Shown in pieces: positions 17,635-31,627 of a stretch of DNA of 32,000 bases. The first letter of the stretch is position 1; each line of letters starts with the position of its first letter. Both the position numbers and the translations under genes were made by a program. This DNA is from Candidatus Scalindua sp. (GTDB lineage: Bacteria; Planctomycetota; Brocadiia; Brocadiales; Scalinduaceae): assembly GCA_031316235.1 (NCBI GenBank), contig JALDRA010000001.1, positions 30,001 through 62,000 of the forward strand. Reading direction: 5' to 3'. The notes under the pieces are model-generated. The model worked only from the letters and a program-made list of their open reading frames with translations, was not told the origin of the DNA and made no database searches.

Positions 17635-18033
17635 AATAGAACACAGAACAACACGGATTACGCATATTTTAAGGGTTTTTGTGTCTGATCATTGGTAAAT
17701 ATTTTTCTCTTAAATTCGGCTCTCTTCTCAAATTTTAGCAGAAGTCCTACTTGGATTTTGGCTGCTTTCAAATAATTATTCAATTGAAATTCATGAACTT
17801 CGCAAATAGTCCCAGCCACTTTTAATGGTAACACTACAACCAATTTTACTTAATTCCATTACCATCGCATTTTCATTAGTTTTTTCTAAAACCCCAATAC
17901 CAAGTTTGTTGTTTACTTCATAAAATGATTTTATTATTCTTCCTGTAATATCCTTGTCTAGAATTTAATTTTTATATCATAAATTTTTTTATCTGTGAAA
18001 TATCCGTATCCTCAGAGTTATCCGTGGTCTATT
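17635..18033 (-). mobile_element. decayed class-1 GxxExxY cassette with both bounding repeats
   Basis: The left arm at 17635-17660 is aatagaacacagaacaacacggatta. The right arm at 17988-18033 is tttatctgtgaaatatccgtatcctcagagttatccgtggtctatt. The interior is collinear with 19585-20097 apart from an internal deletion. Confidence 0.65.
17658..17964 (-). pseudogene. GxxExxY protein pseudogene (class 1)
   Basis: It aligns at nucleotide level to 19621-20079 but lacks about 30 central codons. The start codon is changed: intact cttgtgtaacat versus ccttgtctagaat, so ATG becomes ATT. Confidence 0.75.
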
Positions 18034-18145
18034 GTACTCATCTTATAATGGTTTTCGGATAAAATCCGAGAAAAAACGGAGCGAGTATAACTGCAACCAA
18101 GCTTTGTTTTTTAGAAAAAGCTAAAACCAAAGCGGTTTTAGTATA
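18033..18145 (+). repeat. MITE family 1, full length (copy A)
   Basis: tgtactcatcttataatggttttcggataaaatccgagaaaaaacggagcgagtataactgcaaccaagctttgttttttagaaaaagctaaaaccaaagcggttttagtata. It abuts the cassette arm at 18033 and ends 10 bp from the FemAB-like stop codon. Confidence 0.85.
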
Positions 18146-18155
18146 TCCTTGTATA

Positions 18156-19247
18156 TCACAAACTTACATATTTTCTGATTGCAGGACCTATACGGTTTGT
18201 TACACAGAGTGGTAATTTCTGCCATATTTGTTCTATTTTTTCCCTATTTGATGAAGTTGTTGCATTAAAGTTAAGTTTCTTGCCGTTCATAATTATATAA
18301 TTCCAAAATAGAGGAACAGGCATTGAACTCCATTGCAGTTTAAATTTATAGGTACCTTCATCAGGTGTAGATCGACCAAAATCAAATTGCACATACCCAT
18401 TATCAGCAGAGAATTTTAAAAAATTCCAGTAAAGGAGCATATTGGGTGAAAGGCGGTTGTACTCACGTAAAGTAGATGCCCATGAGACCCAAACACTCTT
18501 ACTAGTGCTTAAAATAATTCCACCACCAACCGGTTTATTACTATAATAAACTAATCCTAAACGGGCGTTCTCACCATAATGTCGTAAGATATTTCTAAAC
18601 CATTCTTTTGAGTGAACGGGTGAACCAAGCTCCCTCATGTTTCTGCAAAAAACCAGATAAAATTCAGCAAAATGTTTAATATCACCCCAAACAAAATCCA
18701 ATCCATTTTTCTCAGCCTTACGAATTTGACTGCGTAGTTTAGATTTGAAACTAACCATCAGCTTATTAGACGACGATGGTATTTCAAGTAACATGCTGAC
18801 TTTATGAGATTGAGTATTTACTTGTAAATCCTGTTCCTGAGAAAATGTGGTTAAGTTATGGCTGCGTAATTCTATTCGTTTTGCCTTTAGTTTCCTGGCC
18901 ATTGATGTCGCTTCCTTTATGAGTTTGTCTCGTGCTTCATTACAACTGCTCAATATGCCACCCAAATCACAATATGGTAAAGAAACCAACTGACCAGACA
19001 AGAGTGGTGGTTTCATAAATATTAAAGGTAATACCCCAAGTAACTTCCCGCTTTCTCCTGCCATCAGGTAGTATCCCTTGTGTTTGTAAGCATCTTCAAC
19101 AGCCATTTTCCATGCAAAAAGATGGTATGCTGAACCATTCGGATGAGACAATATATACTCATCCCACGCTTCCCTGTCTTCAATGCTAGCTAATCTTATA
19201 TTCATGCTTCTTGGTTCAACGGTTTTTTCATAGAACACAGACGACAC
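18156..19247 (-). CDS. FemAB-family protein of the PEP-CTERM/EPS-locus type
   Basis: It has the GNAT-like FemAB architecture with ..FDFGRSTPDEGTYKFKLQWSSMPVPLFWNY.. near the C-terminus. The track start at 19247 is GTG and lies inside a cassette repeat. ATG at 19205 (MNIRLASIEDREAWDEY..) is the more likely start. Confidence 0.75.
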   Translation of the reverse strand: MSSVFYEKTVEPRSMNIRLASIEDREAWDEYILSHPNGSAYHLFAWKMAVEDAYKHKGYYLMAGESGKLLGVLPLIFMKPPLLSGQLVSLPYCDLGGILSSCNEARDKLIKEATSMARKLKAKRIELRSHNLTTFSQEQDLQVNTQSHKVSMLLEIPSSSNKLMVSFKSKLRSQIRKAEKNGLDFVWGDIKHFAEFYLVFCRNMRELGSPVHSKEWFRNILRHYGENARLGLVYYSNKPVGGGIILSTSKSVWVSWASTLREYNRLSPNMLLYWNFLKFSADNGYVQFDFGRSTPDEGTYKFKLQWSSMPVPLFWNYIIMNGKKLNFNATTSSNREKIEQIWQKLPLCVTNRIGPAIRKYVSL

Positions 19248-19581
19248 GGATAACGTAGATTATCACGGATTATTTTCCGATTATTGTTAAAAACTTCTGT
19301 AACATCCTTGTGAAGCATTAAATTCTAACATCCTATCTTTATTTATCAGTGAAACATCCGTGTTATTACTGTTGTCCGTGTTCATTTGATAGAACGCAGG
19401 GGCCACGGGTTGACACAAAATTTCACGTGTTTTATTTCTGGTCATTGATAAAGATTTTTCTGTATTGTCCTTGCCTAACATTGGATTGTTTCAACCTATT
19501 TTTGTTTATCTGTGAGACACCCGCGTTATCGGTGCTATCCGTGTTCTATTGATTGAACGCAGATAACGCGGGTGGCATAGG
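19231..19581 (-). mobile_element. two gutted class-1 GxxExxY cassettes in tandem, separated by palindromic repeat junctions
   Basis: Remnant r1 keeps ATG (19316-19318) plus about 12 codons (MLHKDVTEVFNN). Remnant r2 keeps ATG (19479-19481) plus about 11 codons (MLGKDNTEKSL) fused to the last few codons and 3' UTR (19417-19446). The repeat junctions are at 19338-19416 and 19501-19581. Confidence 0.6.
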
Positions 19582-19610
19582 TTTTCACAGGTTTTGTTTT
19601 TGATCATTGG

Positions 19611-19723
19611 TATACTCATCTCATAATGGTTTTCGGATAAAATCCGAGAAAAAATGGAGCGAGTATAACTGCAACCAAGATTTAGTTTCCGGTAAAACCG
19701 AAAACCAAATCGGTTTTAGTATA
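19611..19723 (+). repeat. MITE family 1, full length (copy B), with TA target-site duplication
   Basis: The filled site is cattgg-TA-tactcatc...ggttttagta-TA-aatattttt. The paralogous empty site at 17691-17705 is cattgg-TA-aatattttt. Confidence 0.85.
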
Positions 19724-20079
19724 AATATTTTTCTCCTAAATTCGGCTTTTTTACCAAAATTTAGTAGAATGCCTACTTCTATTTGGGTTGCTTTCAAATA
19801 GTTGATCAATTGAAATTCATGATGTTCACAAATAGTCTCAGCCACTTTTAATTCTACAATAACCAAATCATCTACTATTAGGTCAGCATAATAGTCTCCA
19901 ACTTCCTCCTTGTCATAATAAACTTTAATATTTTTCTGCTTAGAAACAGTACAACCAATTTTACCTAGTTCGATTGCCATCGCATTTTCATAAACTTTTT
20001 CTAAGAACCCAAAACCTAGTTTGTTATTTACTTCATAAAAAGCTTTTATTATTTTCCCAGTAGTATTCTTGTGTAACAT
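19621..20079 (-). CDS. GxxExxY protein (PD-(D/E)XK fold), class 1, C-terminus replaced by MITE read-through
   Basis: It has GFLEKVY (GxxExxY) and D..VELK motifs. Homology to the paralogs ends at ..AEFRRKIF. The last 44 codons are translated from MITE copy B, and the ancestral stop lies at 19585-19587. Confidence 0.85.
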   Translation of the reverse strand: MLHKNTTGKIIKAFYEVNNKLGFGFLEKVYENAMAIELGKIGCTVSKQKNIKVYYDKEEVGDYYADLIVDDLVIVELKVAETICEHHEFQLINYLKATQIEVGILLNFGKKAEFRRKIFILKPIWFSVLPETKSWLQLYSLHFFSDFIRKPL

Positions 20080-20224
20080 TAAATTCTTATATCATACTTT
20101 GTTTATCTCTGAAATTTCCGTGTCATCAGTATTATCCGTGTTCTATTATCCAATCAACTATTTGAACCCATTTATTTCGGAAGGAAATCATCTAATATCG
20201 GAATGATGCACTGCACTCCATTTG

Positions 20225-21088
20225 TCAAGCAACAGTTTCAGTCATCTTATGTTGAGGGCTAATTGGCCCGAATTTGAAATCTTTAAGTAACTTACCAAAA
20301 CGTTCTTTCGTTTTTACCAAATTATGGTATGTTCTGAATCTTGATAAAAATTTTGCGCCATGAATTCTTGGTTGTTCCGGATCTATCTCCCAGGGATGTA
20401 AGTAAAATATAAATGGTTGATTGTCGCTAGTATTGATCTTGTGTAAGGCCATTCTCGTAAACCAGTAAGGAAACAAACGAAAATAGCCACCACCTGAAAC
20501 AGGAATATTTAGTCCCAGTAATCTGGATGTTGTAATTGGGTATTCAACCAAATCATGTTCGACTAATTTATATTCAAATCTTGGGGCATCAGGCATACCA
20601 TAAAGATCATGTGTTATCGGGAAAACACTAGAATCATATTCAAAACCAGCTTCAGCCAGGATTTCAAACGCCCAAAGAGACTTCCTGGTTATTGAATAGC
20701 TTGGTGCTCTGTATCCTAAGATCTTTTTCCCGGTAATATCCTCCAAAATATTTTTGGCTTTTGTAATGTCTCTTCTAAATTCATCAGGGCTTATATTGTA
20801 TATAAGCTGATGCCGATAACTATGACAGGCTACCTCATGACCATTAATATCTATCTCTTTAACTATTTCAGGGTACTTTTCTGCAACCCATCCAAGGATA
20901 AAAAAAGTCCCTTTTATTTCATCTGTTTTAGAAAGTATCTCTAACAACTTTTTAGTATTCTCAACTACCCGACTCTCATAATTCCCCCAATCTTCAAATC
21001 TTATTTTATTTGAAAAAGCAGAAACCTGAAAATAATCCTCTACATCTATAGTTAAGTAGTTTGTAACAATGCTACCCTGATTTGTCAT
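20225..21088 (-). CDS. polysaccharide deacetylase, exosortase-A/PEP-CTERM locus type (Polysacc_deac_1 + DUF3473)
   Basis: 287 aa: ..YLTIDVEDYFQVSAF.. then ..GTFFILGWVAEKYPEIVKEI..GHEVACHSYRH.. matches the characteristic N-terminus of this family. It lies next to the FemAB-like gene, as in described XrtA loci. Confidence 0.85.
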   Translation of the reverse strand: MTNQGSIVTNYLTIDVEDYFQVSAFSNKIRFEDWGNYESRVVENTKKLLEILSKTDEIKGTFFILGWVAEKYPEIVKEIDINGHEVACHSYRHQLIYNISPDEFRRDITKAKNILEDITGKKILGYRAPSYSITRKSLWAFEILAEAGFEYDSSVFPITHDLYGMPDAPRFEYKLVEHDLVEYPITTSRLLGLNIPVSGGGYFRLFPYWFTRMALHKINTSDNQPFIFYLHPWEIDPEQPRIHGAKFLSRFRTYHNLVKTKERFGKLLKDFKFGPISPQHKMTETVA

Positions 21089-21177
21089 TTTTTTGATAAA
21101 CTGGTATAATTAGGACAAATTATTGTTATTTAGGAATTCAAATCCTTTATATTGTGTTTTTCAAACTCTTTTCTATG

Positions 21178-22140
21178 CTAGGCCAAGTTAGATCCTTTGT
21201 CGCTGCACTCATCTGAAAGATATTCTTCAATAGTGTATTCTTTCAGTCCTCTGGAATGAGTAAATATTATTACCTCCCCTATGAGGCCAATCGATAAAGT
21301 CTGTACACCTAAAACCATTAATAAAACTCCAAGCAGCAAAAGTGGTCTGTCTGATATACCTCCAAAACCTAGCAATTTATACATTACAAGATAACCGTTT
21401 ATTAGGCTCCCTATTCCAAACAATGTTGTTCCAATTAATCCAAAGAAGCGAAGAGGTTTCATGGTAAACTTTGTAATAAAAAATATAGTAAGTATATCAA
21501 GCAAACGGCGCAAATACACACCTGTCCTCACTAATCTTATAGCGGTATCTTCCTTTCTCTGCCTTGCTTTTATCTCCTTTATCTTAAAACCATATTTATC
21601 CGCCAGTATTGGAATAAACCGATGCAAGTCTCCGTATAAGCTGATTTCTTCAAAAACCTTTCTCTTCATCCCCTTAAGTCCGCAGCTGATATCATGAAAA
21701 TGAGTTGAAGTTATTTTCCATATGAACCAGTGAAACATGAAAGATTGAATTCTATTAATTCTTGCATCAATTCTTGGGTAACGCCTTGTTAATATCAGAT
21801 CCCAACCATTATTCAATTCTTTCCAAATTGTCTTTACGCTTTCGGGCTCTACCTGAAAATAAGATGCCAGAGTAAAAAGATACTTACCCTGAGCAGTTTC
21901 TAATCCAATAGATAATGAAACTGCTTCACCAAAGCTTTTTGCCAGCTTTATGACCTTTATTGAAGAATTCTCGCTCTTCAGCTTCTTTAGTTGCTCGATA
22001 ACCTGATGATATTCTCCATTTACTACAAATATAAATTCATAGGTTTTGCCAAGTTTATCAAACTCGGAGGAGAACTCAGAATATAATTTACGCAGATCGT
22101 CGTATCGTTCTACTACCGGAACAATGATTGAAATATCCAT
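21178..22140 (-). CDS. GT2 polyprenyl-phosphate sugar transferase (GtrB/ArnC/DPM1-like) with C-terminal TM helices
   Basis: 320 aa with an N-terminal GT-A domain (ISIIVPVVERYDD..), HRFIP, and two hydrophobic helices at the C-terminus (..FFGLIGTTLFGIGSL.. and ..LLLLGVLLMVLGVQTLSIGLIGEVI). Confidence 0.75.
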   Translation of the reverse strand: MDISIIVPVVERYDDLRKLYSEFSSEFDKLGKTYEFIFVVNGEYHQVIEQLKKLKSENSSIKVIKLAKSFGEAVSLSIGLETAQGKYLFTLASYFQVEPESVKTIWKELNNGWDLILTRRYPRIDARINRIQSFMFHWFIWKITSTHFHDISCGLKGMKRKVFEEISLYGDLHRFIPILADKYGFKIKEIKARQRKEDTAIRLVRTGVYLRRLLDILTIFFITKFTMKPLRFFGLIGTTLFGIGSLINGYLVMYKLLGFGGISDRPLLLLGVLLMVLGVQTLSIGLIGEVIIFTHSRGLKEYTIEEYLSDECSDKGSNLA

Positions 22141-22144
22141 TTTT

Positions 22145-22619
22145 TTAGCCCACTAAATTCACGAAAAAACACGAAAATACTTTCCTGCTTATAAGACCTC
22201 ATAAGATAAAACGTTCGTATTCAAGTTTTGGATGATGTCCAAAATTCACAAGAATACCCAATCTGAATTTAGTAGAATTTAAATAGTTCAAAATTTGTGA
22301 TCTATGCTCATTCGCAATTTTTGATAATGCTTTGATTTCTACAATGATTTTGTTATAACAAAAAAAATCAGGTTTATATACTTGTCTCAATATTTTATCT
22401 CGATATTTAAGTTGCAATTCTTTTTGAGCTTGAAATGGAATATTCTGTAAACTAAATTCAATTTCTAAACACTCCTGATACACCAACTCTAGAAAGCCAC
22501 ATCCCATTTCTTTATATACGTTATAACATGCACCAATAATCGAATAACTTTCATCTGCATAGATAATTTCAGATTTCATTTATTTTCTTTCGAGTTATTT
22601 CGTGCATTTCGTGGGTTAA
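22145..22619 (-). mobile_element. class-3 GxxExxY cassette bounded by 33-bp terminal inverted repeats
   Basis: 22145-22177 is ttagcccactaaattcacgaaaaaacacgaaaa. The reverse complement of 22587-22619 is ttaacccacgaaatgcacgaaataactcgaaag. They match at 27/33 positions, and each arm has three (C)ACGAAA units 9-11 bp apart. Confidence 0.75.
22199..22579 (-). CDS. GxxExxY protein (PD-(D/E)XK fold), class 3
   Basis: 126 aa with GFLELVY, PDFFCY..IVEIK and ..LVNFG motifs. ATG start. Confidence 0.9.
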   Translation of the reverse strand: MKSEIIYADESYSIIGACYNVYKEMGCGFLELVYQECLEIEFSLQNIPFQAQKELQLKYRDKILRQVYKPDFFCYNKIIVEIKALSKIANEHRSQILNYLNSTKFRLGILVNFGHHPKLEYERFIL

Positions 22620-22685
22620 AATATTTTCTAATTTTACTTCTACAGTCTTTTCGATTTATCAGTGCAGTCTCTAATCTGTATTTTA

Positions 22686-23636
22686 TTATAATATTTCAAT
22701 TGATGTTATTCCTCTTCCGTATTTCTTCTTAGTGTCACCCGTTTTTTGTATCATTTCACTCAGAAATCCAAGCATCAACATATGCGCAAATAAGAAAAAG
22801 AGTAAAATTGTAATTGAAGGAATAATTAGTGAGAAAGAATCTAAAACAGCTATATTCAGATACAAACTTATTGAAAAAAACATAAGGACTACTCCCATAG
22901 CCAGAAAAGGGAGGGCCAGTATTCCAAACCAAAGACCATGAGCGCCAGAGAATCCCAGTAACATCTTTATCGTAAATATATCAAGAAAGACCTTCCATAT
23001 CCTTGATAATCCGTATTTGCTCGTTCCAAATTTTCTGGCATGATGGTTAACGACAATTTCTGTATACCTTGCACCCATAATGGATGTCATTGCCGGGATG
23101 AAGCGATGCATTTCGGAATATAGTTTTGTCTCTTTTATCGTAGCACTTCTGTACGCCTTCAAAGAGCATCCGTTATCATGAATCTTTACTCCGGTAATTT
23201 TTCCTATCAACCAATTGGCAATTTTTGAAGGAACTTTGCGGGAGACTAATTTGTCTTTCCGGTTCTTTCTCCATCCACATACTATATCGTAACCTTCTTC
23301 AATCTTTTCAAGGAATCGGGGAATATCTTCAGGGTCGTTCTGCAGATCTCCATCCATACTAATAACGATCTTGCCCTTTGCGTGTTCGAAACCCGCCTGC
23401 ATGGCAGGAGTCTGTCCGTAATTTTTCCGGAATTTTATTACCTTGAGACGAAAATCACTTTGGCGAATAGCTTTTGCCCGTAAGAAGGTGGCATCACTGC
23501 TTCCATCATCTACAATGATAATTTCGTAATTCGTGTGTAATCCCTTCATCACTTGTGTGACAGAATCATACAAAGAACGAATACTTTCCTCTTCATTGTA
23601 AAGGGGAATTACGATTGAAACATCAATATCAGACAT
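22686..23636 (-). CDS. GT2 polyprenyl-phosphate sugar transferase (GtrB/ArnC-like) with C-terminal TM helices
   Basis: 316 aa: VSIVIPLYNEEESI..VDDGSSD..ISMDGDLQNDPEDIP..CGWRKNRKD..SLKAYR..EMHRFIP..SKYGLSRI, then two or more TM helices. This is the classic bactoprenol/undecaprenyl-phosphate glycosyltransferase pattern. Confidence 0.85.
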   Translation of the reverse strand: MSDIDVSIVIPLYNEEESIRSLYDSVTQVMKGLHTNYEIIIVDDGSSDATFLRAKAIRQSDFRLKVIKFRKNYGQTPAMQAGFEHAKGKIVISMDGDLQNDPEDIPRFLEKIEEGYDIVCGWRKNRKDKLVSRKVPSKIANWLIGKITGVKIHDNGCSLKAYRSATIKETKLYSEMHRFIPAMTSIMGARYTEIVVNHHARKFGTSKYGLSRIWKVFLDIFTIKMLLGFSGAHGLWFGILALPFLAMGVVLMFFSISLYLNIAVLDSFSLIIPSITILLFFLFAHMLMLGFLSEMIQKTGDTKKKYGRGITSIEIL

Positions 23637-23893
23637 AAGGTTGTCAATGCTTTAAACATTCCGTGTTACGCGTTGCGTGTTACGGGTCTGTCTCGTCGTC
23701 AACTGTAAGTAGCAAAATTAATAACTGGCCAGTTAACCGTTGGTCAACTGAACCGTCAAACTGGAACCGTACCAAACAATTACTCCATCGCTTAATATGT
23801 ACATAGCTCCGCTCTCTGGGTTACATCGGTTAATGCAACTTTTTAAATTTTAAGAGCCTTATGTAAACCACTAATCTGAATACAACAGTCAGG

Positions 23894-24033
23894 TATACTC
23901 ATCTTATAATGGTTTTCGGATAAAATCCGAGAAAAGACGGAGCGAGTAAAGTCCTCGGCGCCTTTTGTCCGGGGATACCATTAACCAGACTTTGGTTTTT
24001 AGAAAAATCTAAAACCAAATCGGTTTTAGTATA
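23894..24033 (+). repeat. MITE family 1, long variant (copy C)
   Basis: It has the same termini as the other copies. The internal taactgc is replaced by about 34 bp (aagtcctcggcgccttttgtccggggataccatt). Confidence 0.8.
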
Positions 24034-24144
24034 TATACCTGAGGTATAAGAGAATTAATGGAACAAATTTCATTATTATAGCAAATCCTTCGACTAAACA
24101 TTAATTGTGTATATTCTCATGCCATGAGTCATAAAGCACTACGA

Positions 24145-24287
24145 GTGGTTGAACTAAAATTACCATATATTGCATTGCTATAATAATTCTGTGATCCTCA
24201 AGCACATACTTACGATCAGTTATGAAATTATTACTCATCTTGCATCTGGGTAGTTTTGGCTCAACCACAGAGTTTCCGGTTAAGCAC
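24145..24287 (+). repeat. MITE family 2 (copy 1)
   Basis: It is collinear with 27527-27671 at roughly 70% identity by eye. It starts gtggttgaactaaaattacca and ends ..tgggtagttttggctcaaccacagagtttccggttaagcac. Confidence 0.65.
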
Positions 24288-25080
24288 TAAACAGGTACAT
24301 ACAAAAAAATAGAAAATGGCTGCCTGTTCCTGCAGCATCATTTTTGTTCAAAAAATCATCATTCTGTATAAATAATTAAGGTGCCAAAGAGATCTTTTCT
24401 GGCAATATCCGAGTTAATACCATTCCTCCTGTCTATGCGTAAGGACCTGTCAGAGCTTAACGCACAGACAGGCCACGCACTTCCATAATTGCTGCCTCGT
24501 CCCCGCCAGAATGAGCATCGCCCCGGATAAATCCGTTCTCCAACCCGATTGACGAATGTAGGTGTATGTACGGATAAACATAAAAAATAGTTTTAAACTA
24601 TGTATACAATAAAACTAACTGACCGTATAATTTAATTTCGTCTATTCGTTTTCTCTGTGGTTGTTTACAATATTGTTATGAGTTACAAACACTGTTCCAT
24701 TTGAAACAAAAAAATGTTTTATGCCTATATTCTTATATAGATCCTACTTAGGAAGCAATTGGTATTACACAATAGTGAGCAGGTGTTAGTTTTTTAACAT
24801 TATACACGATAGAGAACTTTAGGAATAATCTGATACAGTAGAAAAACAGCAAGTTAAGGAGTGTAAAAAAACTAACACTACCCTGTTAATTTACTAACAA
24901 TAATTATAAGGTACCTTAGCTATGCGTGTTTTGTTTATAATCTTAGGTAAGGTTTTGGGAGCTTAGAAATATAAAATAACAGATGAGAATAGTAACGTTT
25001 CGGTTTTGTAAAACAAATTGTCTGTTCTATTTGTCCCCTCTAGAAAGAGGGGTGGATGCGCAAGCAGACGGTGTGTGTAG

Positions 25081-25131
25081 TATTGCTTATCTTATAATGA
25101 TTTTCGGATAAAATCCGAAAAAATTAGTATA
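25081..25131 (+). repeat. MITE family 1, short form (copy D)
   Basis: tattgcttatcttataatgattttcggataaaatccgaaaaaattagtata. It directly abuts the class-2 cassette arm at 25132. Confidence 0.75.
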
Positions 25132-25685
25132 TCACGCTAAGACGCTAAGATCGCAAAGTAAAAAAACTTTTAAAATCTTTTATATACATCTGTTTTGCAA
25201 TAAAACCTTTTTCTTCGTAGCAGGCTAACTGTAATTTATCAAGTGATTTCACGGAACATGCGTAATGAGGTTATTCTTCCAATCTATTTACTATGCGTGT
25301 GATACCATCCTTCATCAATGCCTCACCAAAGTTGAGCAAAAACCCCAACTTCATCCCAGTCAGCCTCAGATAGGTAAGCAATTGTTTTTTGTGGACTTTT
25401 GTAACAGCTTCAACGGATTTCAACTCTAAAATCACTTTGTTTTCAACAATAATATCAGCTTTAAACGCTTCCTCAAACTTTATACCGTTATATTCAATTG
25501 GTATTGTTACCTGCCTTTGAACTTTCAGTTTACGTCTACCAAGTTCACGCACAAGAATAACTTCATAGACTGTTTCAAGCAACCCTGGACCTAGTTCTTT
25601 ATGTAAAACAATAGACTCATCAACCACAACCTTGCCTATTTCATTTTCTGTCATTCTTCTTTGCGATCCCTGCGGCTTTGCGAGA
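25132..25685 (-). mobile_element. class-2 GxxExxY cassette bounded by 27-bp inverted repeats
   Basis: The reverse complement of 25132-25158 is ctttgcgatcttagcgtcttagcgtga. 25659-25685 is ctttgcgatccctgcggctttgcgaga. They match at 21/27. Confidence 0.7.
25271..25654 (-). CDS. GxxExxY protein (PD-(D/E)XK fold), class 2
   Basis: 127 aa with GLLETVY, ADIIVENKVILELK and ..LLNFG motifs. ATG start. Confidence 0.9.
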   Translation of the reverse strand: MTENEIGKVVVDESIVLHKELGPGLLETVYEVILVRELGRRKLKVQRQVTIPIEYNGIKFEEAFKADIIVENKVILELKSVEAVTKVHKKQLLTYLRLTGMKLGFLLNFGEALMKDGITRIVNRLEE

Positions 25686-25700
25686 TTCTATTTTTTGATA

Positions 25701-25782
25701 TATACTCACCAGATAATGGTTTTCGAACACATTACGGAAAAAAAACTGAGCGAGTATACCAGCAACCAGGCTTTCGTTATTA
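25701..25782 (+). repeat. MITE family 1, degenerate and 3'-truncated (copy F)
   Basis: tatactcaccagataatggttttcgaacacattacggaaaaaaaactgagcgagtataccagcaaccaggctttcg.. Similarity fades before the stop codon of the next gene at 25814. Confidence 0.6.
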
Positions 25783-25813
25783 CTATTTATGCCGAATAGA
25801 TATGCTATTGTTA

Positions 25814-27271
25814 TTAGACCATTTGAATATATTTCTTCTTACTCTTTGCAATCACTACATCCAACCCGGTTGAATTTAACTCTGTCTTTAATACTTTTTT
25901 AGCCTGGAAATCTCCATGAACAAGGAAGGTTTTTCCGGGTTTTTGCCTGAATCTTTTTACCCAGCGTATCAGGTCATTCTGCCCTGCATGAGCCGAATAC
26001 CCGGATATTTCATGAACAGCAGCCTTTACGCTTATCCGCTTACCATCAATCATTACATAACCCTGGCCTTTTTTGTCATGACTGCTATAATTGAGTATTT
26101 CTCTGCCCAATGTCCCGGAAGACTGGTATCCAATAAATATAATATCGCTTTTCCGGTCCGGCAAAAATTTTTTAAGATAATTCATAACCCTTCCTCCCGT
26201 ACACATGCCGCTGCCTGCTATGACAATTGCCGGACCACCTTCTTTTTTTAACCGTCTTATGACCTTCATATGATCTTTATGGTTTATAATACTCGTAATT
26301 CCCGGAAAGAGAAAGGGATCATCTCCCCTTTTAAGCCGCTTCTTTGACTCCTTATCCCAATAAGATTTAAGGCCAGAATACAAGTTTACAAACTTATTTG
26401 CCAGGGGTGAATCAACTATAACAGGAAGCATCGGAAGTTTGCCGGATTCGACAATTCCGTTAAGTTCATAAAGCAGCTCCTGTGTCCTTCCAACGGCAAA
26501 GGCTGGAATGATAACTATTCCATTGTCTGAAAGAGACCTATTTAGTGTTTCCAGCAAGACATTACGTCGATCCTTCCGTCCCTTATGAATCCTGTTTCCA
26601 TAAGTTGACTCAAGCACAAGAATGTCTGCGCGATAAGGCGAACGGGGAGAACTCAAGATTGGAGCATATGGGGCTCCAAGGTCTCCAGAAAAAACAACTC
26701 TACCCCCTTTCATACCGTTTGTCCGGCGATGTCCTTTGCCTGATGTGACATCAACCTCAATAAAAGCACTGCCAAGAATATGCCCAGCGGGATGAAATTT
26801 AATACGGAATGTATCAGACACGGTTATCCACTGTTTATATCTACATGGTACTATACGTTTTCTTAGTATATTAATCACATTTTGGATAAGTCTATGGTTT
26901 CTGGTGAAACCTATCTTGAGAGCATCAATTATCTGTTCCGGAACCAGGAATGCAGTTGGTACTGAAGTATAGATTGGGCCCGTATAGCCAGCAGCAAGCA
27001 GGTATGGGAGACGGCCTATGTGGTCAATATGGGCGTGTGTAAGGACTAATCCCTTAACGTTTGAGATGCCAAAGTCTATTTTTAATTCACGGTGATCTCT
27101 TGCTTCCTTTCCCTGAAAGATACCGCAGTCAATCAGCATGCTTTCAACCTCATATGAAATTTGATGACACGATCCGGTAACGCCTTCCGTGGCACCATGA
27201 AATTGTAAGCTCATTGTCATGAGGAAATCAAAAGTCGAAGAATAGAAAAGACAGGAATCGTGAAGGATCAA
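25814..27271 (-). CDS. MBL-fold metallo-hydrolase of the beta-CASP (CPSF/RNase J-like) RNA-processing family
   Basis: It has the HAHIDHIGRLP (HxHxDH) motif, a beta-CASP middle region, and C-terminal ..ISGYSAHAGQNDL..VHGD.. motifs. The family normally starts M..F.GA...VTGS, so ATG at 27220 or 27214 (MTMSLQFHGATEGVTGSCH) is more likely than 27271. Confidence 0.85.
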   Translation of the reverse strand: MILHDSCLFYSSTFDFLMTMSLQFHGATEGVTGSCHQISYEVESMLIDCGIFQGKEARDHRELKIDFGISNVKGLVLTHAHIDHIGRLPYLLAAGYTGPIYTSVPTAFLVPEQIIDALKIGFTRNHRLIQNVINILRKRIVPCRYKQWITVSDTFRIKFHPAGHILGSAFIEVDVTSGKGHRRTNGMKGGRVVFSGDLGAPYAPILSSPRSPYRADILVLESTYGNRIHKGRKDRRNVLLETLNRSLSDNGIVIIPAFAVGRTQELLYELNGIVESGKLPMLPVIVDSPLANKFVNLYSGLKSYWDKESKKRLKRGDDPFLFPGITSIINHKDHMKVIRRLKKEGGPAIVIAGSGMCTGGRVMNYLKKFLPDRKSDIIFIGYQSSGTLGREILNYSSHDKKGQGYVMIDGKRISVKAAVHEISGYSAHAGQNDLIRWVKRFRQKPGKTFLVHGDFQAKKVLKTELNSTGLDVVIAKSKKKYIQMV

Positions 27272-27431
27272 TTCAAAACGACTAATGGCTTAAGGTTCGT
27301 AGTTGATGGCTCATGGGTGTGGTTCTCCAAAAACTGATCTGCTAACTCATTGGGTAGAATTACTAACACAATGAAAATTTAACAATTTCAAGTTCTGCCG
27401 CTTAAGTGTTCAATACTCTATTCATGCAGAA

Positions 27432-27481
27432 TATACTCATCTCATAATGATTTTCGGATAAAATCCGAGAAAATTAGTATA
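27432..27481 (+). repeat. MITE family 1, short form (copy E)
   Basis: tatactcatctcataatgattttcggataaaatccgagaaaattagtata. It abuts the class-2 arm at 27482, as copy D does. Confidence 0.8.
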
Positions 27482-27785
27482 TCACGCTAAGACGCTAAGA
27501 ACGCGAAGCATAAAGATTTTTATATAGTGATTGAACGAAAACTACCCATCTACTGTGTTGCTGTAATAATTTCTTAATCCTCAAGTACATTAGTACGTTC
27601 CGGTTGCGAAATTACTACACGCCTTGTATCTGGGCCGTTTTCGTTCAACCACAGGGTTTCCGTTCAAGCACTATATACATCTTTTTTTTTGCATACCTTT
27701 CTGTTTTGCAATAGAATCATCAATTACAACCTTGCCTATTTTATTTTCTGTCATTCTTATTTGCGATCCCTGCGTCTTTGCGTGA
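27482..27785 (-). pseudogene. gutted class-2 GxxExxY cassette (both arms kept, gene reduced to about 14 codons)
   Basis: The arms are 27482-27508 (tcacgctaagacgctaagaacgcgaag) and 27759-27785 (atttgcgatccctgcgtctttgcgtga). The start codon at 27752-27754 is followed by MTENKIGKVVIDDS (intact copy: MTENEIGKVVVDES), then joined to the 3'-flank sequence at a shared caata. Confidence 0.7.
27527..27671 (+). repeat. MITE family 2 (copy 2) with TA-rich target duplication
   Basis: It starts gtgattgaacgaaaactaccca. The reverse complement of the 3' end is gtgcttgaacggaaaccctgtggttgaacgaaaacggccca, so the TIR is about 16/18 and is duplicated at the 3' end. It is flanked by tatata on both sides, whereas the uninterrupted paralogous site at 25181-25186 has a single tatata. 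Confidence 0.65.
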
Positions 27786-27800
27786 AACTATTTTTTGATG

Positions 27801-27913
27801 TATACTCATCTCATAATGATTTTTGGATAAGATCCGAGAAAAAACGGAGTGAGTGTAACTGCAACCAGGCTTTGGATTTTAGATAAATCTAAAACCAAAT
27901 CGATTTTAGTATA
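27801..27913 (+). repeat. MITE family 1, full length (copy G)
   Basis: tatactcatctcataatgatttttggataagatccgagaaaaaacggagtgagtgtaactgcaaccaggctttggattttagataaatctaaaaccaaatcgattttagtata. Confidence 0.85.
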
Positions 27914-27935
27914 TGCCAGACCAGAGAGCCATAGT

Positions 27936-28487
27936 TTAGAATATATTCTTTAATCTCTTGTTAAAGCCTTTAAGGCCCGGTGTTTCAATGATATCATTAT
28001 CTCTGTATATCTTAAAAAGTTTATAAGCAGTATTGTCCAATAGATATATCTCTATAGACTCATCCTCCGGAATTACGATCCAGTATTCCTTTACACCAAA
28101 TTGTGCATAAAGTTTCTTCTTTTGAACCATGTCTCTATAGGCACTGCTCTTGGAGATTATCTCTATTGTTATACAAGGGGCTCCCTGGATATTCTTTTCT
28201 CCTATGATATTCAGCCTCTCCTTTGAAATAAACATAATATCAGGTTGAACCACATTTCCCTCATCAAGGTATACATCGCACGGCGTAAAAAATATCTCCC
28301 CAAGGTTCTTTTCGTTTACAAACTTCTCTAACAAAAACTCCAGCTTTCTTAGAATCCTTTGATGTCCTGTAGTTGGAGATGGAGTCATAAGTAGTTCCCC
28401 CTCTATAAGTTCATACCTCTTATCATCAGACATCATAACATAATCTTCATACGTATATTTTTTCTTCTTTTCAATAACTTTTGTCAT
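27936..28487 (-). CDS. Uma2-family (DUF820) PD-(D/E)XK endonuclease
   Basis: 183 aa: ..YTYEDY..DDKRYELIEGEL.MTPSPTTGHQ.. then ..VVQPDIMFISKE.. and ..APCITIEIISKSS..D...K...YA..GV.EYWIV. This is the typical Uma2 pattern. Confidence 0.85.
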   Translation of the reverse strand: MTKVIEKKKKYTYEDYVMMSDDKRYELIEGELLMTPSPTTGHQRILRKLEFLLEKFVNEKNLGEIFFTPCDVYLDEGNVVQPDIMFISKERLNIIGEKNIQGAPCITIEIISKSSAYRDMVQKKKLYAQFGVKEYWIVIPEDESIEIYLLDNTAYKLFKIYRDNDIIETPGLKGFNKRLKNIF

Positions 28488-28761
28488 AGGTATCCTCCTA
28501 CCCGGTGCAAGCCGGTAAAGGAAATAAGATTTACGAATTACAATTTACGATTTTTATTGATGTTTTTAATGCAGCACTAAAAATAGAAACCAGCTCATTT
28601 GTTTCATTTTTCTTTAATACACCGAAGGTTAAAGTAGAAGGGTAAGTTTCCCCATTTTAATTTTTCCCGCCAAGAGCGTTCATACTTTATCAAGAAATAA
28701 TTTTAGCATTAAAAATATTATACCTGATAACACTGGGTGCATTCCCAATTTATTGTAAAAT

Positions 28762-30180
28762 TTATTTAACAATTCGAAGACTTCTCTTAAATTTTTTATT
28801 TTTAATTCTTTCCTGGTCGTCCCTTTTGTATTTTTCGATAACTTTATCGTAAGTACCGTTATATTTCGCGCATCTGATCTTGAGTATGTTATTAGCGTTT
28901 TGGATATACCACCAAGCTCCTGATCGTTTAAGCCTTGTATGGCTAATGAATTTATTGGCGCTTTCAATAGCACCGCTGCCAATGTGATATCCTCCACGCT
29001 TGGCGGAACTGTAATCCATCTTTTCACAATGATTTGTGAGATAGGTATAAAACTTGTCAATTTTATCTTGAATATCTTGAGTTCGGGCTTTCATCTTTCC
29101 AAGACCGCCAAGCACCTCTTCATGGTAACCATAATATATTCTTGTCAGAGTCGCCTCACACCACTGTAGAGACTCTCTTGTCTCTTTTCCGTAATGGGCA
29201 TTGGCTACACCATGGACATACTCCGAGCAATGGTAATAGTCGAGAATCTCTTTTGCCGAGGGAAATATTTCTTTACATCGGTTCCAGATCCAGGGAGCAC
29301 CGTCTCCTATAATTCCCAGGCGTATCTTCTCGTGGGGAATAAGCCCGGCTTCTTTGATCTTAACCAAGTATTCTGCTAATTCGTGATCTGCACAAACCTG
29401 GTGCCAGCTAATTAAATGAATAATAGTTTGACCATCGATGAGATACAGTCTAAAACCTTTAATCTCTTTGTATTCTCCCTTGCCTCTTTTCCCTTTACGG
29501 GGGTGAGGACTTGGCTCGGGACGCATCGGCCCGTGGGCTCCATCCAGGGCAAGCATCATAATGGGACGACGAAACTTATCCACTGAGAGGTTTTCTATCT
29601 GCTTATCAATCTCTTCCCTGGGCGGGCAGACATCCAAAATTCCCACTTCTTGACCAATGGCATTCGTGGTCTCATGCATATGATGTTCACTCAGCTTTAC
29701 TCCGGTTATTCTCTCGTAGGTTTCGCTGGCCGTCTCATAGGCCGTTTCGCTTGACAACCAGGCTTCCACATCTTGCACATCATATTGCTTCGATGATTCA
29801 GACAATCCAAGGGCTTCGTCTAAAGGATAGTATCCTAAACGACACGCTCTGCAATAAAAATAAGGCCTGGTTAATTCAAATTGTCCGGCAAGGGTTTGGA
29901 TAGTCTTGGATTGTTTTCCTTGTCTTTGCATACCCTTGCCGCATTCGGGGCAATCGCAGCTTTGCTGATTCAATAAATGTCCAAATTTCCTCTCTATGAA
30001 CCCAAGAATCAGTTGTCCTAATATCTCCGCTCTCTCTTCGAAAACAGCTTTTGAGATTTCTCCTAAATCTTCCATTGAGTACTCTTCCTCAATCTTATCC
30101 AATCGGGTGTCTAAAAAACCATAAAATAAAGCTCTCCAGTTATCGGATGACTCTATCTTTCTTTTCACCACACAAGTCAA
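28762..30180 (-). mobile_element. ISKra4-like transposase gene (apparently intact); element ends not defined
   Basis: 472 aa with the zinc-ribbon pair CDCPECG...YFYCRACRLGYYPLDEALGL followed by a DDE-type body (..LALDGAH.., ..IIGDGAPWIW.., ..DYYHCSEY..). This architecture is characteristic of ISKra4-family transposases. The track start is TTG, and the true start may be internal (MEDLGEI..). Confidence 0.75.
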
Positions 30181-30203
30181 AAATACCCCCTTTCAAAAGA
30201 CTT

Positions 30204-30869
30204 CTATCGCTCCCTGAATACATCTATGGCGAATAGTAACGCCTGACGTTCTAATACAGGCATGGATTTAAGTTTCGCTGTCCACCTTTTGGTCTTCCTC
30301 TTTATCCGTTCCCGCTCACGAAAGTTATTGCCAAGATAACGATAGTCGTGCAGTCCTACCGGAACACTATAGTTCATCCATAACCACTCCGTTGCTACGC
30401 CATGATGACAGACGGCCTGAAAAGAATGTGTCTGCCAGCTACGCAATGATTCTTTGTATAAGGTTGACTCGTAACCGGATATCATCACCATGCAGGGAAG
30501 AGTTTTCAAAACTTCCAAAAGTTCGATGTGCTGCGCACGGCTATAGTCATATTTATATAGCCGTCCATACTTTTTCCTTGTCTCGCGAAGATATGGTGGG
30601 TCACAATATACCAGTTCTTTTCCTGTGAAATGATAATTATTCAGATAATTAATTGCGTCATCATGGACCAGTTCAAAACCTATTGGATGCATATTTGTCC
30701 ACATCTCAACAACTTCCGAGTCAATTTCTATCCCAAAATTACTCCTGGCAGGTCGTTTGTTCCGTATAACAGCGCCACCACCCAAATGAGTCTCTATGTA
30801 GACATCATGGGGTGGCATAAGATTGATTAACTTTTGGAATACACCTCCTTTGCCGCCTGGATAATTCAT
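30204..30869 (-). CDS. DNA N6-adenine methyltransferase, D12 (Dam-like) class, short form
   Basis: 221 aa with N-terminal YPGGKG (AdoMet-binding motif of D12 enzymes) and the catalytic DPPY (..VYCDPPYLRE..). No adjacent restriction-enzyme candidate is present. Confidence 0.7.
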   Translation of the reverse strand: MNYPGGKGGVFQKLINLMPPHDVYIETHLGGGAVIRNKRPARSNFGIEIDSEVVEMWTNMHPIGFELVHDDAINYLNNYHFTGKELVYCDPPYLRETRKKYGRLYKYDYSRAQHIELLEVLKTLPCMVMISGYESTLYKESLRSWQTHSFQAVCHHGVATEWLWMNYSVPVGLHDYRYLGNNFRERERIKRKTKRWTAKLKSMPVLERQALLFAIDVFRER

Positions 30870-31011
30870 GGAAGAATTATCGTTGAAAACAACGAGGAAG
30901 TCAAGATCTTTTATTATATTTTACAAAAAATCGGGAATGCTCCCATAACACTCCTATCTGTCCAATCCAGAAAACAAATGTCCATTTGATTATATCGGAC
31001 TTACTCTTTTC

Positions 31012-31124
31012 TATACTCATCTCATAATGGTTTTCGGATAAAACCCGAGACAAAATTGAGCGAGTATAACTGCAACCAAGATTTTGTTTCCGGTAAAGCC
31101 GAAAACCAAATCGGTTTTAGTATA
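31012..31124 (+). repeat. MITE family 1, full length (copy H)
   Basis: tatactcatctcataatggttttcggataaaacccgagacaaaattgagcgagtataactgcaaccaagattttgtttccggtaaagccgaaaaccaaatcggttttagtata. Confidence 0.85.
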
Positions 31125-31537
31125 TCTCAATTCTATGTTTTCCACACTCCTCAGTGATTTCCTGGTTCAACCTACCGGTTTCTTCGGTAAGTCGTCTTTC
31201 AAACCTTTCTTCGGCAAACACTATAATCTCCTCGTGATTACGGGAACTTCTTCTTGTTCAATTGAAAAATAATCGCTACAAGGTATCACACGTTACAATA
31301 ATATAGCCTGCTCCCTTTAATAATTCAATTTGCTTTTGCATTAAAGCTATTCCTTACCTGGCAGAGCCAGAACCAAAAAGGAATAAATTTTATATGTGTT
31401 CTTGTTCGGCCAGGTTGTTAAATGAAAACCTGACCACCTGTGCCGAACATTGCAGTATTCAAAAAGATCAGAAAATCAAGATATTGCAATTTAGAGACTA
31501 AGTGGTATCTGAAGCGGAAAGCTAAAATATCTCAAGA

Positions 31538-31627
31538 TTTCGTGTAATTCTGTGCTATTTCGTGGGCTATTAAAGAAAAATTCTTTGGAATCATGTTGCC
31601 TGCCCACTGATACCACGAAAGAACACT
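31538..31627. repeat. gene-less tip-to-tip doublet of the class-3 cassette repeats
   Basis: 31538-31568 is atttcgtgtaattctgtgctatttcgtgggc. After a 34-bp spacer, 31603-31627 is gcccactgataccacgaaagaacac. These are the same TTTCGTG/CACGAAA and GTGGGC/GCCCAC elements as at 22145-22619, but the GCCCAC tips face each other. Confidence 0.6.

Follow-up and report, generated by a model that had tools for sequence, protein, structure and literature searches.

The 32,000-nt stretch of DNA analyzed here (the window) comes from Candidatus Scalindua, an anammox planctomycete. Between 15.5 and 27.3 kb every gene lies on the minus strand and forms part of an XrtA/PEP-CTERM exopolysaccharide (EPS) operon, and set into this region are three intact genes of the GxxExxY family (TIGR04256/PF13366), which we call c1, c3, and c2. 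Their products match the family at E values of 1e-38 to 1e-41, scoring 130 to 140 bits against TIGR04256 (cut-off, 35) and 133 to 139 bits against PF13366 (cut-off, 22). An earlier note on this DNA had described them as diverged paralogs of three classes, each bracketed by its own inverted repeats; pairwise identities of 32 to 37%, with all three proteins above the cut-offs of the family hidden Markov models, bear out the first part of this description. One decayed copy and three gene-less copies with internal deletions are also present. Sequence comparison supports the view that GxxExxY is the single gene of a compact element of about 470 to 600 bp, bounded by terminal inverted repeats of class-specific phased motifs.

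The full-length class-1 element spans positions 19552 to 20146 on the minus strand (TIGR04256 E value, 4e-38), with a 5' arm at 20098-20146, the gene at 19621-20079, and a 3' tail plus arm at 19552-19611. Its homology to the other class-1 copies begins with ATAGAAC and ends with GTTC(A/T)AT, and the arms read ATAGAACACGGATAAtACTGATGACACGGAA...CAGAGAT upstream and ...CCGCGTTATCTGCGTTCAAT downstream. Native coding sequence runs from the start at 20079 to 19723, where, after codon 119, the 3' end of the gene is interrupted by a 111-nt miniature inverted-repeat transposable element (MITE), D1 (19612-19722); the open reading frame (ORF) is 152 aa long because of this unrelated insertion. Two gene-less elements of about 160 nt, mini1 (19389-19549, minus strand) and mini2 (19230-19385, minus strand, abutting the start region of the FemAB gene), follow c1 in that order as a head-to-tail array. 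Both were delimited by sequence alignment (A5 and A6 for mini1, which has no GxxExxY tblastn match). What remains in each is both arms, the 3' tail, and ∼10 codons from the start of the gene, and we therefore regard them as internal-deletion derivatives. The earlier note had placed gene-less, tip-to-tip doublets at 19338-19416 and 19501-19581; gene-less arm pairs do exist, but these two are the junctions of the array. The decayed copy (17636-18032, minus strand), found by tblastn where the note had put it (fragments 17697-17816 and 17827-17964), has both arms intact, as aligned at its ends, and an ORF (17697-17964) with five stop codons and an internal deletion.

The class-3 element (22149-22615, minus strand) consists of a 5' arm, CCCACGAAATGCACGAAA.., the gene at 22199-22579, and a 3' arm, TTTCGTGTTTTTTCGTG...GTGGG; in alignment A7 its homology with c3-like elements from three other contexts is bounded by the arms. 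The class-2 element (25131-25686, minus strand) has a 5' arm at 25659-25686 (TCTCGCAAAGCCGCAGGGATCGCAAAG), the gene at 25271-25654, a 3' untranslated region of about 110 nt, and a 3' arm at 25131-25163 (CTTTGCGATCTTAGCGTCTTAGCGTGA, about 120 nt past the stop codon); the evidence for it comprises inverted repeat I2, clusters of CGCWAAG, and a c2-like gene with CGCAAAG arms at locus L145. A 305-nt class-2 mini element (27482-27786, minus strand; repeat matches D6, D11, I3, I5, and I8, and tblastn) comprises the 5' arm, 19 codons, a deletion reaching into the 3' untranslated region, and the 3' arm, and contains a second, unrelated MITE at about 27527-27680. The class-2 remnant reported by the earlier note at 27712-27754 is present, again by tblastn, but is really part of this larger element, whose N-terminal remnant covers 27698-27754. 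At 31538-31627, to which no strand is assigned, the gene-less class-3-type arms taken for a doublet are there (TTTCGTGG, ∼50 nt, CCCACGAAATAGCACAGAATTACACGAAA) but are outward-facing solo arms.

Reading the minus strand, we find for each gene a class-specific arm directly upstream of the ATG and an inverted arm past the stop, in agreement with the note. The arms hold two to four phased, class-specific motif copies where two or three had been proposed, clustered at the places named there, and motif counts in the window (9 versus 1.5 expected, 11 versus 3.6, and 14 versus 3.8) exceed those of every dinucleotide-preserving shuffle. Searches for proteins identical to c3 and c2 yielded either nothing or just a 2.8-kb copy of the same locus. 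A further phased motif, GTAACACG(N3)..GTAACACGGAAT, at 23655-23690, ∼20 nt upstream of the start of a glycosyltransferase family 2 (GT2) gene at 23636, may be a solo arm remnant of a GxxExxY element.

Two other repeat families lie among the elements. D1 is a MITE-like repeat of 110 to 140 nt whose inverted ends read ATATACTCAT; of its internal hairpins, two resemble terminators by score. Its copies (18030-18146, 19612-19722, 23900-24037, 27794-27914, and 31005-31125) and partial copies (25095-25140, 25720-25782, and 27440-27490) all follow the orientation of the operon, and three copies adjoin the outer end of a GxxExxY 5' arm. We considered D1 as a part of the GxxExxY unit and rejected this, given its own inverted ends, its solitary occurrence in Scalindua AMX11 (L164, about 19040-19180), and the copy inside c1. 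The second MITE-like repeat, found at about 24156-24289 as well as within the class-2 mini element, has inverted ends GTGCTTGAACGGAAAC and GTTTTCGTTCAATCAC and apparently a TATATA duplication at its flanks.

Apart from A/T richness, the sequences outside the arms are unrelated between copies. The four class-1 copies in the window are homologous only between ATAGAAC and GTTCTAT, with unrelated sequence beyond. Genes 75 to 79% identical to c3 occur in four unrelated contexts (between two GT2 genes in the window, between genes for UDP-glucose dehydrogenase and GT4, between Na_Ca_ex and LpxB, and between genes for a 229-aa protein and a radical SAM protein), and homology always starts at ..GCCCACGAAA and stops at TTTCGTGGGC... 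In the window the host genes concerned, all on the minus strand, encode a beta-CASP nuclease (25814-27271), two GT2 glycosyltransferases (22686-23636 and 21178-22140), an XrtA-system deacetylase (20225-21088), and a FemAB-family protein (18156-19247). Other Scalindua EPS operons keep the beta-CASP-GT2-GT2 and deacetylase-FemAB orders with junction gaps of 54 to 120 nt; the GT2-GT2 gap at the class-3 position is 54 nt. The empty-site comparison suggested in the earlier note thus finds all three window insertions absent from syntenic Scalindua loci, none of which has a GxxExxY gene at any of the three sites. Locus L162, from a closer relative, carries a fourth class, with CACAGAG arms, at another junction. 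The deacetylase-FemAB gap of L162 (10870-11085; 215 nt), the closest relative, contains phased TGAACC repeats that are direct, not inverted, a different type of repeat at the site occupied by class 1 in the window.

One junction, between the Na_Ca_ex gene and a conserved 111-aa ORF upstream of lpxB, was compared over five Scalindua assemblies. It is empty in L186 (..TAGATAAAATGACATT..), holds a full class-3-like element in L167 and L179, and holds a 76-nt gene-less element with CAC(N)AAG-type arms in L182 and L183; it has thus been hit independently by two element subclasses. Between L182 and L183 the flanks are the same and the 76-nt core is inverted, with 72 of 76 positions identical when one copy is reversed versus 49 of 76 in the same orientation; the core is self-complementary at only 50 of 76 positions. 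The 76-nt element (2569-2690 in L182 and L183) is bracketed by an 8-nt direct repeat, ATGACATT. The inversion is a DNA-level event, either breakage and rejoining exactly at the termini or reinsertion in the other orientation, and is hard to ascribe to homologous recombination because the arms share only about six perfectly matched terminal bases.

A small nuclease gene wedged between conserved host genes, with a sporadic phyletic distribution, resembles a free-standing homing endonuclease gene, which would cut empty alleles and be copied in by recombinational repair, the arms being the halves of a palindromic target. PD-(D/E)XK homing endonucleases, such as I-Ssp6803I, exist, and occupation of the same junction in several lineages fits this explanation as well. 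Homing nevertheless seems to us very improbable: the flanks hold no conserved target and are unrelated between copies, the empty site in L186 has no arm-like palindrome, and the genes travel along with their own inverted arrays and give rise to gene-less derivatives.

To see how far the arrangement extends, we scanned one genome per species for class-1-like genes and, separately, metagenomes for loci centered on class 3. The first scan gave 80 genes 58 to 72% identical to c1, from Ignavibacteriota, Bacteroidota, Desulfobacterota, Acidobacteriota, Chloroflexota, Calditrichota, Geobacter relatives, a Parabeggiatoa, and a Methanoperedens archaeon; the second gave 80 loci. Each gene was given a score for the best inverted repeat pairing its upstream 120 nt with its downstream 250 nt, and this was compared with the scores of shuffles. 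Values above the 99th percentile of the shuffles were obtained for 70% of 77 class-1-like genes and for 56% of the 71 in the class-3 set, versus 1% of 149 other genes in the same loci, so most of the sampled GxxExxY genes do have flanking inverted repeats. A search for chains of at least three copies of a 5-mer spaced by 8 to 12 nt found 260 phased-repeat regions (29 in shuffled sequence), 132 of them within the 9.4% of sequence that flanks GxxExxY genes (24 expected; p, 1e-64). Strictly complementary arm pairs surrounded a GxxExxY gene in 39 cases, formed gene-less units of <330 nt in 18, and were outward-facing neighbors in 6; in the loci of both scans the strict detector found no pair around any other kind of gene, and the motifs are therefore not shared equally with unrelated genes. 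We rejected promoter or terminator elements as an identity for the arms, since sigma-70 promoter and terminator patterns never matched on them, the terminator-like matches being D1 hairpins. The family as a whole comprises 11,399 clusters at 50% identity (E value, 1e-3 or better).

The arms are inverted arrays of a 6- to 8-nt motif in two to five copies (usually two to four), capped by a conserved outer terminus. Spacing between motif copies is 9 nt in 48 cases and 10 nt in 21. Class-1-like arms have the outer end (A)ATAGAAC followed by head-to-tail units, for example, GAACACGGAT, GACACGGAT, and TGGACGGAT; elements extend from ATAGAAC to GTTCTAT in class 1 and from GCCCAC to GTGGGC in class 3. 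Comparison of the arms within an element gives an identity of 0.91 for motif cores and 0.81 for the other aligned columns. A/G and G/A mismatches between arms are symmetric (53 versus 52), and there is therefore no strand-specific tolerance of G:U and no pointer to selection for an RNA stem. When the orthologous elements L013 and L018 are compared, the likeness is between equivalent arms of the two, and within an element the spacers of one arm do not complement those of the other. Judged by these patterns, the arms look like arrays of binding sites, unlike a selected RNA or single-strand stem.

These features bear on an RNA-level explanation, in which the arms pair in the polycistronic transcript and the stem is cut by RNase III or the encoded nuclease, releasing or silencing the ORF. 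The model for such an element is the ORF-bearing intervening sequence of 23S rRNA ("S23p", a four-helix-bundle protein), in which a short ORF between inverted repeats likewise sits within a transcribed unit. The elements do lie within operons, where 92% of upstream neighbors are co-oriented; in the predicted RNA fold of the c3 element, its two arms pair with each other in the minimum-free-energy structure and the centroid structure alike; and tRNA-splicing endonucleases are among the weaker fold matches of the protein. We give this explanation little credence, however. The c3 fold has a z-score of only -0.56, a stem has no need of direct-repeat arrays, motif cores are better conserved than the other arm columns, and neither G:U asymmetry nor complementary spacers (L013 and L018) are seen. 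Moreover, a gene-less element in both orientations at one site and duplicated units are DNA-level events. A specific link to the 23S rRNA intervening sequences was rejected: ∼180 loci and the window contain no match to a conserved 23S segment, none of the loci is situated within or close to 23S rRNA, the fold of the GxxExxY protein is unrelated, its arms are phased arrays, and rearrangement is seen at the level of DNA.

Arm motif and protein class go together. Class-1-like proteins are accompanied by C[GAT]GAT, class-3-like proteins by CACGAAA (in one subgroup, CACGGAA), and other, neighboring clusters by CGAAT(T); the class-2-like gene of L145, from another metagenome, has CGCAAAG arms, with ACCGCAAAGACGCAAAGGCCGCAAAGA matching class 2 of the window. 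Protein cluster and motif class share an adjusted mutual information of 0.49 (permutation p < 0.0005), and in a Mantel comparison protein distance correlates with arm 5-mer distance at r = 0.41, versus r = 0.15 for control flanks 410 to 500 nt away. Shared descent feeds both statistics; therefore, they show that arms and gene travel together and are no proof of recognition. The earlier note had expected flank class to track protein class, as it does here over unrelated samples, if the protein recognizes its own flanks; of these two ideas the first is observed, and the second is what we infer. Residue 15 of c3 (helix 1; window positions about 22535-22537) is Arg in 3 elements with CACGGAA arms and Ile, Met, or Gln in 10 with CACGAAA arms. 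This possible base-reading residue is a weak lead from 3 versus 10 sequences, of which the three may be a single clade.

This co-variation also bears on whether GxxExxY is mere cargo of a MITE-like element whose arms are moved in trans by a transposase encoded elsewhere. Gene-less copies exist, one mini element has an 8-nt direct repeat resembling a target-site duplication, and PD-(D/E)XK enzymes are not known to integrate DNA, all of which would suit a passenger. On the other hand, GxxExxY is the sole gene between the arms over many phyla, the arm motif changes along with the GxxExxY subfamily, and no transposase recurs in the displayed flanks, with a Y1_Tnp gene in L181 as the sole exception. 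We consider the passenger explanation quite improbable. The L181 gene (705-1364; PF01797, IS200/RAYT-type) lies 2.6 kb upstream of a class-3-like element and is the only transposase-like neighbor in the gene tables seen.

The protein itself appears to be a minimal Cas4/RecB-like PD-(D/E)XK nuclease with an intact catalytic motif, judging from its model. The three window classes and 47 class-3-like homologues have, without exception, the D, E, and K of D...ExK and the residues of G..E..Y (D71, E81, K83, G28, E31, and Y34 in c3 numbering). An AlphaFold2 model (predicted local distance difference test score, 94) has an alpha-alpha-beta-beta-beta-beta-alpha-beta core, and its best structural matches are Cas4 SSO0001 (4ic1; E value, 4.5e-4; TMq, 0.58), lambda exonuclease, and LHK-Exo, followed by DUF820/Uma2 and Bax1. 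The description of a ∼125-aa protein of the PD-(D/E)XK fold in the earlier note is thereby confirmed. A sequence search for a solved relative found none. Profile searches gave PF13366 as the sole family match and no transposase family, and PADLOC and PHROGs gave only weak matches to a Cas4-like core. Although Cas4/RecB-family nucleases are the closest structural relatives, the GxxExxY protein is roughly half the size of Cas4, has no cysteine invariant across the three classes, and has EPS, lipopolysaccharide (LPS), and housekeeping genes as neighbors, with no cas neighborhood in the loci shown. A 2012 survey of PD-(D/E)XK proteins lists the function of the family as "Unknown" (PMC3424549). Beyond that survey, the literature searched for GxxExxY, PDDEXK_3, PF13366, or TIGR04256, the coverage of which was incomplete, held incidental mentions and no description of function or mobility; like the earlier note, we found no account in it of GxxExxY genes as repeat-bounded units.

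The arrangement resembles that of REP-associated tyrosine transposases (RAYTs) with their repetitive extragenic palindromes (REPs) and REP doublets (REPINs), a likeness drawn in the earlier note. Here too, one small gene is enclosed by a short repeat in inverted copies, protein subtype and repeat type vary together, gene-less doublets exist, and the gene is kept in place with mostly vertical inheritance under purifying selection. The pattern matches, but neither the enzyme nor the repeat architecture does. RAYTs are HUH/Y1 transposases (PF01797), whereas GxxExxY is a PD-(D/E)XK nuclease; REPs are individually palindromic hairpins, whereas the GxxExxY arms are direct arrays with copies 9 to 10 nt apart that form hairpins only when two arms are close together; and the gene-less copies in the window are internal deletions of a gene-bearing unit. 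DNA transposons and insertion sequences with multisite ends (Tn7 and Mu) and MITEs are likewise discrete units whose inverted ends carry repeated motifs resembling binding sites, found in unrelated contexts, with nonautonomous deletion derivatives and empty sites in relatives. In contrast to these, the GxxExxY elements have no DDE, serine, tyrosine, HUH, or Cas1 enzyme, their sole protein being the 125-aa nuclease, and no regular target-site duplication was seen; the unit measures only ∼0.5 kb, lacks its own promoter, and shows a strong bias toward the orientation of the host operon. The elements thus fall outside both groups because the enzyme class and repeat architecture are wrong and no regular target-site duplication was seen.

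The upstream neighbor is co-oriented in 123 of 134 cases, at a median gap of ∼90 nt; together with arms free of sigma-70 and terminator patterns, this fits expression by read-through. In syntenic-site pairs, the proportion of nonsynonymous differences is 0.06 to 0.21 and that of synonymous differences 0.5 to 0.85, with dN/dS of 0.1 or less where computable, and the arms are 70 to 80% identical in pairs whose synonymous sites are near saturation. Purifying selection is thus strong on the gene and acts on the arms as well. Because copies stay at the same site over the long term under such selection, it is uncertain whether the label "selfish" suits these elements.

Long residence is also what would be seen if GxxExxY were a resident host gene with a cellular role, the arrays being its own regulatory or insulating sites in operons and presence or absence reflecting old gain and loss. 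Vertical retention at syntenic sites with low dN/dS, arms conserved in place, one copy fixed in the same context across many samples, and the lack of a general target-site duplication all fit this explanation. Still, we think it unlikely, as one element class occurs in four unrelated contexts with homology that breaks off precisely where the arms end, copies in the window include tandem, decayed, and gene-less ones, one junction has been hit by two subclasses and contains a precisely inverted 76-nt element, and planctomycete and Ignavibacteria c1 proteins are 72% identical and have the same arms. Each of the four rival explanations accounts for part of the data yet is at odds with one or more of these findings: the sharp boundaries, the four states at one site, the failure to find any other gene between the arms, and the unrelated flanks.

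The occurrence of the same gene-plus-repeat unit over many phyla points to an undescribed kind of mobile DNA element. We infer that the nuclease itself probably reads the arrays and cuts at the termini, with host repair finishing inversion, excision, or insertion. In the mechanism that we propose, protomers of the nuclease would line up along one face of the DNA, roughly one to each helical turn, on motif copies of the cognate class; the nuclease would bring both ends together and cut at the outer termini. Host repair would rejoin the DNA, yielding excision, inversion, or insertion at tight, A/T-rich gene junctions, and gene-less deletion copies with both arms would be acted on in trans. The gene, without a promoter of its own, would rely on read-through from the co-oriented upstream gene. 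Movement would be rare, and most copies would persist in place and intact, as RAYT genes do with their REPINs. More tentatively, PF13366/GxxExxY units (>11,000 clusters at 50% identity, in bacteria and at least one archaeon) may constitute an unrecognized superfamily of prokaryotic mobile elements whose sole protein would be a nuclease that reads phased, class-specific ends and cuts both termini, joining being left to host repair.

Several observations weigh against mobility driven by the nuclease. PD-(D/E)XK nucleases hydrolyze DNA, and we know of none that carries out strand transfer; therefore, insertion would depend on host repair. No target-site duplication is evident, as direct repeats in the flanks are not in excess over those of mismatched pairs, and the sole exception, the ATGACATT repeat, recreates the start codon of the downstream ORF and is offset from the ends of the arms, by 2 nt on one side and 13 nt on the opposite side. 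Co-inheritance alone could explain the co-variation of arms and protein, and arms are not detectable in 30 to 44% of the sampled GxxExxY genes. Within the window, c2 and the class-2 mini element have D1 flanks in common beyond both arms (D6 and D11), so this pair may be a segmental duplication. Signs of recent spread are also lacking. Several pairs of loci from different genera hold the element at the same syntenic position, and a class-3-like protein found in 79 collection blocks has one identical context throughout, with no sign of recent multicopy spread. Despite evident spread across phyla, only 7 of 72,556 plasmid records contain the family, and a search of GenBank phages found no match. 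In one of the plasmid records, from Fusobacteria, two gene-less hairpins lie ahead of the gene and a 3' arm lies behind it. An IMG/VR scan with a c2-first alignment found no relatives.

Other features of the window stand apart from these elements. A beta-CASP metallo-beta-lactamase nuclease heads the GT2-GT2 block in every Scalindua EPS locus examined (window 25814-27271; L163, 2970-4364; L164, 4128-5519); it matches a type VII Cas14 model at an E value of 3.5e-97, yet its 326 bits are below the cut-off of 800. Adjoining the class-2 mini element is a PD-(D/E)XK protein of the Uma2/DUF820 family (27936-28487; E value, 4e-35), a second small nuclease family without a known role in the region. 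Farther on (28734-30945), a pair of 36-nt inverted repeats (83% complementary) encloses 2.2 kb of DNA with genes for a transposase-like protein of the UPF0236 family (28762-30180) and an adenine methyltransferase of the D12 class (30204-30869); the whole looks like an insertion sequence with a methyltransferase passenger. The ∼1.6 kb between c2 and the next GT2 gene (23637-25270) has no ORF of >55 aa and no Rfam match, as was the case throughout the window; it includes a D1 copy and the second MITE, and in other Scalindua the equivalent junction measures tens to ∼140 nt.

PF13366/TIGR04256 is a very large family without an assigned function, and repeat-bounded units provide a concrete, testable hypothesis for it, namely, binding of cognate arms and cleavage at the termini. 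They would explain why GxxExxY genes are scattered in EPS and LPS operons and provide a possible protein partner for some, at least, of the repeats that stand as orphans between genes. Should the nuclease indeed be the mobilizing enzyme, these elements would represent a new enzymatic basis for DNA mobility, one without known transposase or recombinase chemistry, together with a naturally diversified set of short-motif readers in which the pairing of motif and nuclease would be programmable.

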